DNA of 16,848 bases from a virus. Taxonomy: Duplodnaviria > Heunggongvirae > Uroviricota > Caudoviricetes. The position numbers and the translations under genes are program-made. The stretch is from positions 121,776 to 138,623 of IMG/VR virus record IMGVR_UViG_3300027994_000001. One strand, given 5' to 3'. The notes beneath the pieces are model-generated. The model did no database searches and was not told where the DNA came from. It worked only from the letters and a program-made list of their open reading frames with translations. Of the stretch, positions 4,410 to 12,123 are shown piece after piece; position 1 is the first letter of the stretch; every line of letters starts with the position of its first letter.

Positions 4410-4441
4410 CAAATGTAACAATTATTTTTTAATATACCAAA
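4410..4441 (-). promoter_or_regulatory. Bacteroidota sigma-A promoter for tRNA/ncRNA transcript
   Basis: Exact TTTG-N20-TACATTTG; predicted start near 4405. Confidence 0.8.
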
Positions 4442-10385: not shown

Positions 10386-10417
10386 CAAATTTACAATTAA
10401 TAATTGAAATAACCTAA
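10386..10417 (-). promoter_or_regulatory. Bacteroidota-type promoter for the small-ORF early operon
   Basis: TTAG-N20-TAAATTTG; shares TTAGGTTATwTCAAT with the 2652-2683 promoter. Confidence 0.7.
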
Positions 10418-10544
10418 TGAAATCTAATTTAATTTCATATTTTTTGTATAATATTTTGCCGCCCTATTATTTATCTGTTTTTGTTGTTTACGAATATAGT
10501 TTGGCAGCAGACTAAAGACAAAGAGAATCAAAACGGATATTACC

Positions 10545-10778
10545 ACGTACTCTACTTCAAACCGAAACTATGCGCAAACTGAGTAACTAGATACTTAAAT
10601 GCCCTGCTCGGGCGGAGGTTAACCAAGCTACTGCGCTTCGCTTCGTATCTCGTTAACTAACCTATTATTTTTCTTTTATCTGTTTTGAAGTAGAGTACGT
10701 AAGTAATGGCTTCGCCTTTCGGTCGTTCCTCCCTCACTAAAGGATTTATTTTTTATTGGAGCTAAAGCTCCCGCTCCA
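10545..10778. other. Candidate replication origin / primosome assembly (ssi-type) element
   Basis: Perfect 17-bp inverted repeat 10545-10561/10684-10700; GCGAAGC mini-hairpins on minus strand (in 10628-10643 and 10708-10716); GC-rich hairpins 10601-10613 and 10757-10778; located near the strand switch. Confidence 0.5.
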
Positions 10779-10789
10779 TAGGATAACTT

Positions 10790-11070
10790 TAAGAATTTAA
10801 ATTTTGGCTGAATAATCAACCTTCAGGCGGAAATAGTGTAAAAACACCTCCTTGTCCCTTTAGCTTAAGTCCAGGAAATAAAATTCCTTTTCCGCAACAT
10901 GAGCGAATCCAATCGCAGCTCCATGTTATTAAACGCGAAAAATCCTTGTAAAACTAACAGCATAATATGGAACCGGCTGTATAACGTTTTAGAAAGGATT
11001 TTTCTTATTGTTATGATATTAGTAATTATGGTTCCATCCAATAATAACTATCTTATATTTTAATGCTATC
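10790..11070 (-). ncRNA. Candidate structured non-coding transcript
   Basis: Directly downstream of promoter 11074-11105, no minus-strand ORF of 60 aa or more, many stems, and crossed pairings 10938-10947/10994-11003 and 10967-10974/11030-11037. Confidence 0.45.
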
Positions 11071-11073
11071 CTG

Positions 11074-11105
11074 CAAAGGTAAGCATTATGTTTTGATTCT
11101 GCAAG
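11074..11105 (-). promoter_or_regulatory. Bacteroidota sigma-A promoter
   Basis: CTTG-N20-TACCTTTG. Confidence 0.7.
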
Positions 11106-11209
11106 CTTTTCAGTAGATTTTTTATGATGATTTGTAAAATAAGTTTTTTAGTCTTATGAAACCCTCACTAATACGTCCTTTTTAACGATTCATCTACTTT
11201 AATTATACG

Positions 11210-11241
11210 CAAACTTACAAAAATAAAATTTAATGTGCAAA
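11210..11241 (-). promoter_or_regulatory. Bacteroidota sigma-A promoter
   Basis: Exact TTTG-N20-TAAGTTTG. Confidence 0.8.
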
Positions 11242-11245
11242 TTAC

Positions 11246-11500
11246 TTAATTTTTGTTGAAGTCTATTTCTTCCCCGCCATCAAAAACTTCCGGCTTAAAG
11301 AGAAATAAATTATAAAAGAACAGCTTAAGATTTTCCGCATAAACAGATTCATGAACATTCTTAGATTCATACTTCCTGAATAAAGAGAAAGTAAGCGTCT
11401 TAATAAATTCTGCATTCTGTTCCCTATACTGAAAAGAGACATCACTATAACTAATATAATGATTCCATATACGTGAATAAAAATCGTCGTAAGCAAGCAT
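11246..11500 (-). CDS. Hypothetical protein (84 aa)
   Basis: ORF track; has its own consensus promoter just upstream; aromatic-rich. Confidence 0.7.
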   Translation of the reverse strand: MLAYDDFYSRIWNHYISYSDVSFQYREQNAEFIKTLTFSLFRKYESKNVHESVYAENLKLFFYNLFLFKPEVFDGGEEIDFNKN

Positions 11501-11524
11501 AATTCTTTGGTTTTAATTATAGTG

Positions 11525-11556
11525 CAAATATATAAAATAATAATTTAAAACGCAAA
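11525..11556 (-). promoter_or_regulatory. Bacteroidota sigma-A promoter
   Basis: Exact TTTG-N20-TATATTTG. Confidence 0.8.
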
Positions 11557-11673
11557 TTACTTAATTTTAGACCACACCCATACAAAATAAATTAATACAA
11601 AACTCTTAACGAAAAGTTAATTGATTAGGATATATCAATCTAATTGATTTATTTTGTAGTCTAAGAGCATTAA

Positions 11674-12123
11674 ATGGACGAAAAAGATATAAAAATAAAG
11701 CAGTTAGAAGCACAACTTTTAAAATTTAAAGAGCCTTTGAATGCCCTTAATATTAAAGTAAGTTCTAAAAATACGATAGAGAGGTTAGATAAATTCCTGA
11801 CCGCATACGCTGAATTAAAAATGACGGAAGAAAACAGACTTCTGCCGTCCCACAAACCAATTTTACTATATTATTTGGCGAAAGGTATTACAGATGAAGT
11901 ACTTCAAACTATTTTAGATGATAATCCTGAGCGGGAAAAAGTAAAAAAAGGAAAACAGCTTACAAGAAATCACCTACATACAATTAATAAAAAATTAAGA
12001 GACAGAGGATATCTAATAAAAGACGAAAAGAATTATCAAAAATTCAAATTATCTCCAGATTTAGAAGCAATAAGAAAAAAAGTATTAGAAGAAAATTGTA
12101 AATTAATTCTATTAATGTTTTAA
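11674..12123 (+). CDS. Probable winged-helix DNA-binding protein
   Basis: LLPSHKPILLYYL...LTRNHLHTINKKLRDRGYLIKDEKN...FKLSP fits recognition helix plus wing (L-x-x-[KR]GY[LI]); first gene of the rightward module. Confidence 0.5.
   Translation: MDEKDIKIKQLEAQLLKFKEPLNALNIKVSSKNTIERLDKFLTAYAELKMTEENRLLPSHKPILLYYLAKGITDEVLQTILDDNPEREKVKKGKQLTRNHLHTINKKLRDRGYLIKDEKNYQKFKLSPDLEAIRKKVLEENCKLILLMF

Follow-up and report, generated by a model that had tools for sequence, protein, structure and literature searches.

This study examined a gap between genes in a tailed phage (Caudoviricetes), represented by IMG/VR record IMGVR_UViG_3300027994_000001, which is complete at 138.6 kb, has a G+C content of 32%, and carries terminal repeats of 127 bp. 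The window analyzed here is the 16,848-nucleotide right end of this record (121776-138623), and coordinates refer to the window unless another sequence is named. The gap covers 10389-11245 (857 bp), in which the listing of the window contains no open reading frame (ORF) of 60 amino acids (aa) or more. Genes run leftward up to 11500, with a UvsX-like recombinase and PhoH among the leftward set, and rightward starting at 11674, where the set includes a phage GroEL (12593-14236, plus strand, 547 aa). The gap is bounded on the right by an 84-aa gene (11246-11500, minus strand), the first of the leftward operon, and on the left by an AT-rich spacer with the promoter of the next gene (10386-10456, minus strand), which is kept in the related contigs L004, L005, and L006. 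An earlier note, made from the sequence alone, had described the gap as a gene-free, structured region entered by two leftward promoters, and had proposed a plasmid-style, RNA-primed replication origin. The observation was confirmed and the interpretation partly supported: the gap is probably a cassette that encodes a conserved folded RNA of ~0.6 kb, and we put at about 0.4 the probability that this RNA performs the same task as the proteins that replace it in sister phages, namely starting or priming phage DNA replication.

The element is best described as a structured non-coding RNA of ~0.6 kb read from the minus strand (10457-11066), with the 5' end placed from the second promoter (P2, below) and the 3' end from the last conserved hairpin. 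A protein-coding reading was rejected, since every ORF of 26-58 aa in the stretch is broken or frameshifted in relatives and none stays open. The core of the element (10796-10935) is 92% identical to that of L005, versus 76-86% for the flanking protein genes at the DNA level. An RNAalifold consensus of six sequences contains 166 pairs, with compensatory change in 13, and this is the structural conservation among relatives that the earlier note had named as a test of its proposal. The folded minus-strand transcript that it postulated is also supported by strand-specific folding: the minus strand folds with a z-score of -4.0, compared with -2.75 for the plus strand, and the minimum free energy (MFE) is about -170 kcal/mol in the sense direction versus -136 to -149 kcal/mol in the antisense direction in every lineage tested, so that sense folds beat antisense folds by 20-34 kcal/mol in all lineages. 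The numerous G-U pairs of the fold suit the minus strand alone. Projection of single-sequence MFE structures as a covariation test gave only a moderate signal, with 23-47% of predicted pairs retained at changed sites in the sense direction and 18-29% in the antisense direction. A displaced non-template DNA strand is identical in sequence to the RNA, and therefore covariation that tolerates G-T pairs cannot by itself separate an RNA from a structure in single-stranded DNA; the size of the fold and its long-range architecture favor an RNA. The stretch thus has the general features of a structured non-coding RNA gene: it is non-coding, more conserved than its neighbors, and folded in a strand-specific manner, with compensatory changes, across two deep lineages.

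Relatives carrying the RNA were located through the phage GroEL and DNA patterns (L005, L006, L010, L027, and L037, with partial copies in L034 and L039), and the element is present in one copy in each genome. These relatives form one tight cluster with 91-98% mutual identity and ~73% identity to the window; therefore, only two deep lineages are available for comparison. Pattern and protein scans of IMG/VR for further homologs returned the same four contigs only. A metagenome scan added L027 and L037, and its six other matches were chance hits on high-GC contigs. No homolog was found in a scan of prokaryote genomes or in a search of GenBank phages. The family is accordingly narrow, and all of its members are metagenomic. 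At gathering thresholds, no Rfam 15 model (GOLLD, ROOL, tmRNA, RNase P, 6S, and group I/II introns included) matched the stretch; a permissive Rfam search of the window and its relatives (E up to 10) returned chance-level matches only, and ARAGORN found no tRNA in the stretch. Judged by these searches, the RNA is a new family outside Rfam.

The predicted RNA, all of whose parts lie on the minus strand, begins with a long 5' hairpin (10937-11001) consisting of a 16-bp outer stem and a 9-bp apical stem. The apical stem shows compensatory changes at four of its nine pairs, including C-G to U-A and U-A to C-G, and the outer stem shows one-sided changes only. The most conserved core follows (10796-10935), with invariant helices at 10895-10928, 10873-10888, 10835-10848, and 10806-10821. 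In the consensus fold, an 18-bp long-range helix joins 10850-10872 to its 3' strand at 10516-10535; it is rich in G-U pairs, which would be A-C mismatches if the plus strand were read. The 3' domain (10540-10705) is clamped by a 21-bp helix (10685-10705/10540-10560), an extension by alignment of the perfect 17-bp inverted repeat (10545-10561/10684-10700) that had been noticed earlier. One pair of this clamp varies: the window and L010 have U-A, L006 has C-G, and L005, L027, and L037 have U-G. Within the domain lies a conserved 11-bp hairpin (10618-10657) whose tip is a GCGAAGC mini-hairpin (10635-10641). A small variable hairpin, GGC-GAA-GCC (10708-10716), becomes CGC-GUAA-GCG or CCAACU-GGAU-AGUUGG in relatives. 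The consensus fold ends with a terminal hairpin, GCUGCC...GGCGGC with an A-rich loop (10457-10509). Homology with L004, a phage that carries a protein cassette instead, restarts within the 3' arm of this hairpin, and the 3' boundary of the cassette probably lies within the hairpin. The 3' half of the RNA contains two copies of an A-rich motif, AAAACAGAUAAA..UAAUAGG (10463-10481 and 10661-10686). In the sister lineage (L005:6140-6200), a G-run tract, GGAGAGGGGGUUUGGGGGUGAGG, stands where the window has an ordinary hairpin; this tract is not conserved, and it might fold into a G-quadruplex or favor an R-loop.

The promoters in the window are of the Bacteroidota type. A sigma-70 scan was set aside because its consensus is not that of Bacteroidota and its counts equaled those of shuffled sequences, and the pattern TTTG-N17-21-TAnnTTTG was used in its place. 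The strict pattern has three matches in the window, all on the minus strand: 4410-4441 (before tRNA-Met), 11210-11241 (P1), and 11525-11556 (before the 84-aa gene). Both leftward promoters described by the earlier note are conserved. P1 is an exact consensus, with TTTG, spacer, and TAAGTTTG, and is kept in L004, L005, L006, and L010. P2 (11074-11105, minus strand) is a near-consensus promoter whose -7 box is TACCTTTG and whose -33 box is CTTG in the window and TTTG in relatives; it is perfect in two of the three close relatives examined (L005 and L006), and in L004 the -7 box ends in TTTA. The 110-aa gene downstream of the stretch has its own -7 box (TAAATTTG, 10386-10393), again as had been noted. 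Between P1 and P2 lies a leader of ~95 nt (11106-11200, minus strand) with the closing stem AGUAGA/UCUACU. Alignment and RNAalifold of the window, L003, L004, L005, and L006 show that this leader is kept regardless of the type of cassette behind it, with 67% identity between the window and L005; it may act as a regulatory element or as a small RNA in its own right. The motif UUAGUGAGGG is present in both the leader (11162-11171) and the main RNA (10731-10740). The P1 region (11198-11250) is repeated before the 84-aa gene at 11512-11565 (80% over 53 nt), and relatives contain a third copy on the opposite strand. These extended repeats look like a phage-specific class of early promoters.

The sister phages provide the main clue to function. 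L004 has the same P1, leader, P2, and downstream promoter, and between them a 318-aa gene instead of the RNA; its GroEL is 78% identical to that of the window, and its flanking proteins are 81-89% identical. In the complete genomes, the RNA and this winged-helix protein exclude each other: the RNA alone occurs in G000, G002, and G003, and the protein alone in G001. The RNA region is not a pseudogene of the winged-helix gene; a tblastn search of the phage's own genome with the protein gave no match at E up to 10. The model of the 318-aa protein (predicted local distance difference test [pLDDT] 86) shows two winged-helix domains connected by a long helix. Structure searches returned only generic winged-helix matches (Z 5-7), with weak similarity to DnaD-NTD, a staphylococcal plasmid initiator, ORC2, plasmid replication initiators (AFDB), and AbiEi. 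The family contains 78 homologous clusters and fills this slot in distant relatives as well (130-149 kb).

Further occupants of the slot were found with the conserved 84-aa gene as anchor (89-90% amino-acid identity in L004-L006, 30% in L041). L047 has a 389-aa protein there (L047:4083-5252, plus strand), whose model (pLDDT 92) combines an N-terminal winged-helix-like domain with a family-A polymerase fold. Foldseek matched it to apicoplast Pol, Klenow, and Bst with E down to 7e-7, and in the viral library BFVD it matched a "putative DNA polymerase I" (template modeling score 0.78) and virophage "DNA replication protein" entries. The motifs D..NSQ, R..K..F, and TIHDS are invariant across this family of 102 clusters, whose proteins are ~385 aa long, have no exonuclease domain, and are covered by no Pfam family. 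Judging from the models, this family of a winged helix joined to a mini family-A polymerase is a candidate phage primase or initiator. Truncated family-A polymerases serve as primases on mobile elements (PMC10061031), and TV-Pol is a related documented family (PMC2579912). The occupant in L049 is a 403-aa primase-like protein of the AEP/BT4734 type, with a BT4734-like_N domain (Pfam, 25.4 bits versus a cut-off of 22.4), a PHROG match to "DNA primase/helicase", and a C-terminal helix-turn-helix; its Atlas neighbors carry PriCT or Replicase families. The folds and families of the L047 and L049 proteins, together with the documented family-A primases, thus indicate that, of the three proteins known from this slot, at least two combine a priming or polymerase enzyme with a DNA-binding domain. 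The remaining one, the double winged-helix protein, is modeled as a DNA-binding protein and is compatible with an initiator role. Two side observations concern the same slot. In the distant relative L041, an array of five tRNA genes separates the first promoter from the tandem promoters of the winged-helix gene (L041:5257-5726). A fifth relative departs from the winged-helix cassette right at the start codon, 93 nt before its contig ends (L003:1-93), which may reflect a further cassette type or an assembly break.

Since the RNA cassette stands where sister phages hold initiator or primase genes, the RNA most likely acts in replication initiation, and the replication-initiator or primase type of the slot proteins makes an origin-linked role plausible. 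Beyond the existence of the RNA, we infer the following course. Host RNA polymerase would transcribe the cassette leftward, early in infection, from the two tandem consensus promoters, giving a folded RNA of ~0.6 kb from P2 plus read-through from P1. This would take place in a fixed slot beside the divergent promoter region and the minimum of GC skew. The transcript may then remain on the template or become a processed primer, so that the duplex is primed or opened where the RNA is made. The clamped 3' domain (10540-10705) and its conserved GCGAAGC-tipped hairpin would then be exposed on the displaced minus strand, where the phage's own primase and helicase could read them as a signal for single-strand initiation. 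Mini-hairpins of the GCGNAGC form are known from phage G4, at single-strand initiation sites recognized by primase, and from ssiA of RSF1010 (PMC13037366). A stronger version is possible but doubtful: that the folded RNA took over the job of a protein initiator or primase, forming a self-contained origin-priming module that, behind unchanged promoters, is interchangeable with three unrelated types of protein initiator. The four cassette types, namely one double winged-helix protein, two fusions of polymerase or primase type, and the RNA, mirror three strategies of plasmids (iteron Rep WH1-WH2; ColE2 Rep primase and RSF1010 RepB' with ssiA/ssiB; ColE1 RNA II). The likeness is one of analogy, with homology limited to the generic winged-helix and AEP/BT4734 folds.

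A number of points weigh against a role in replication. Guilt by position is weak evidence, and a large multi-helix fold with invariant junctions is also expected of a trans-acting RNA. The covariation comes from two lineages alone. The winged-helix protein also resembles AbiEi-type regulators, and the five-tRNA array in the region of the RNA suggests that the slot may be a general hot spot in which accessory genes of the early region accumulate. Cumulative GC skew of the whole genome, a check that the earlier note had proposed, has its minimum at 133,000 (window ~11,225) and its maximum at 57,000; the global minimum does fall at the locus, but both extremes coincide with switches of gene orientation, and the skew is therefore not independent evidence of an origin. 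Searches near the slot, in any cassette type, revealed nothing convincing in the way of iterons, a DnaA-box cluster, or repeats. The strict pattern gave no plus-strand consensus promoter in the region that could drive an antisense transcript. The RNA-like strand has a weak G excess (126 G versus 103 C) without a G-run, and a G-rich segment that could anchor a hybrid, GGGGGUUUGGGGG, is present in the sister lineage only.

The specific form of that proposal was a ColE1-like origin, in which a persistent R-loop and an RNase H-made primer would be followed by host PriA acting on phiX174-type hairpins in the displaced minus strand. The transcript would have the size of RNA II and strong promoters, its hairpins lie on the non-template strand, and the GC-skew minimum is at the locus. 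Like ColE1/pMB1 RNA II, it would be a folded non-coding transcript (~0.55-0.6 kb for RNA II) with a strong promoter and hairpin signals on the displaced strand, and on the reading preferred here both RNAs would stand in place of an initiator protein. The two differ in that there is no sequence or Rfam relation, no conserved G-run/C-run hybrid anchor, and no antisense RNA I promoter, and in that the element belongs to a lytic-type phage of 139 kb that encodes a polymerase, helicase, and primase of its own. Direct scans of large ORFs identified a 703-aa phage DNA polymerase (phrog_1252, E 1.7e-140) and a DnaB-like helicase (369-aa ORF, G000:C1:82205-83314, Pfam DnaB_C 34.1 bits versus a cut-off of 27); a core BT4734-like (AEP-like primase) protein is present in all four complete genomes, and the phage also encodes exonucleases and a UvsX-like recombinase. 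Genome-wide family searches for PolA, PolB, Pol III alpha, and DnaB were negative, and the fact that DnaB_C was missed genome-wide and found by direct scan calls for caution with such negative results on this virus. The notion that the phage lacks its own replisome and needs a plasmid-style origin is thereby ruled out, and a host-only mechanism is not needed. The likeness to phiX174 is partial. Minus-strand GCGAAGC occurs at 10635-10641 and 10709-10715, as had been reported, and these are two of the three minus-strand copies in the 138.6-kb genome. Around the first copy, 18 of 22 bases, including AAGCGAAGCGC, match phiX174 2353-2374 in the F-G intergenic region, on the strand that would become single-stranded; the local score is 29, and the maximum among 300 shuffles is 27. 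The matched segment is one that we take to adjoin, rather than lie within, the 55-nt PriA recognition fragment. This short match is conserved only in part among relatives. In them the second GCGAAGC copy is replaced by unrelated hairpins with GUAA or other loops, a pattern that suggests selection acting on the RNA fold and not on a primosome assembly site. To our knowledge, primosome assembly sites have no sequence consensus, so similarity to phiX174 cannot establish function. The "phiX-like primosome site" of the earlier note thus stands as a resemblance, a candidate primosome site at most, and the ColE1-like scheme as a whole is unlikely. Among phages, replication primed by transcripts is known from the T7 primary origin, with tandem promoters 1.1A/1.1B and an AT-rich region, and from the R-loop origins oriF and oriG of T4. 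Here, too, two tandem promoters point in the same direction near the start of the early region. The T7 and T4 origins have a short AT-rich unwinding region directly downstream, whereas here the tandem promoters, which are of the host type, are followed by 0.6 kb of conserved structured RNA with a comparatively high GC content of 0.35-0.40, and no AT-rich stretch is reached before 10386-10456.

Almost as likely as a function in replication is that of a large structured RNA acting in trans and unrelated to replication, either GOLLD/ROOL-like or a decoy or regulator in host takeover or counter-defense, placed in a variable early slot. The element is long and multi-helical; it has long-range helices, loops of the GNRA type or with GAA, and a highly conserved core. 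It shares its promoter type with the phage tRNA-Met gene, tRNAs occupy the same region in L041, and genes for RNA repair are numerous in the genome. Large RNAs linked to phages include GOLLD and ROOL (PMC12286853, PMC5737381), which are intricately folded and often near tRNA genes. They differ from this RNA in host phylum and in their far broader distribution, their models (like all others in Rfam) do not match it even at E up to 10, and it alternates with protein genes. If the RNA acted in trans, it would be a coincidence that two, and perhaps all three, of the alternative occupants are of a replication type. The element might instead be a cis-acting leader, a long folded 5' region of the leftward operon that governs how transcripts bound for the downstream small genes are read through, processed, or stabilized. 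Such a leader would explain the position between strong promoters and a co-oriented run of genes, the retention of the P1-P2 leader whichever cassette follows, and the result of an intrinsic terminator scan at the end of the RNA region, which detected none. This is improbable: the next gene has its own conserved promoter, a protein gene replaces the element in sister phages with the downstream context unchanged, and 0.6 kb with a 92%-conserved core far exceeds known leaders. The narrow, purely metagenomic family could also point to the decaying remnant of a lost gene or to functionless chance hairpins, a view that is close to refuted by the conservation pattern, given a core more conserved than the neighboring genes, the compensatory changes, the fold z-score of -4, and the lack of tblastn similarity to the winged-helix protein. 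An RNA serving replication initiation is retained as the preferred reading. As a further observation on the setting, the GroEL homolog lies ~1.3 kb to the right of the slot and retains 77-84% identity in sister phages.

In sum, if the preferred reading holds, this RNA adds a new family to the large structured RNAs of phages, one that Rfam does not contain. If it serves replication, it would represent a variant of the transcript-primed origins, and this one slot would show a natural swap between RNA-based and protein-based initiation. Such a slot would offer a comparative system for the exchange of initiators and origins and for the replacement of protein by RNA in starting DNA synthesis. The family that joins a winged helix to a mini family-A polymerase, with its 102 clusters, merits study on its own as a candidate phage primase.

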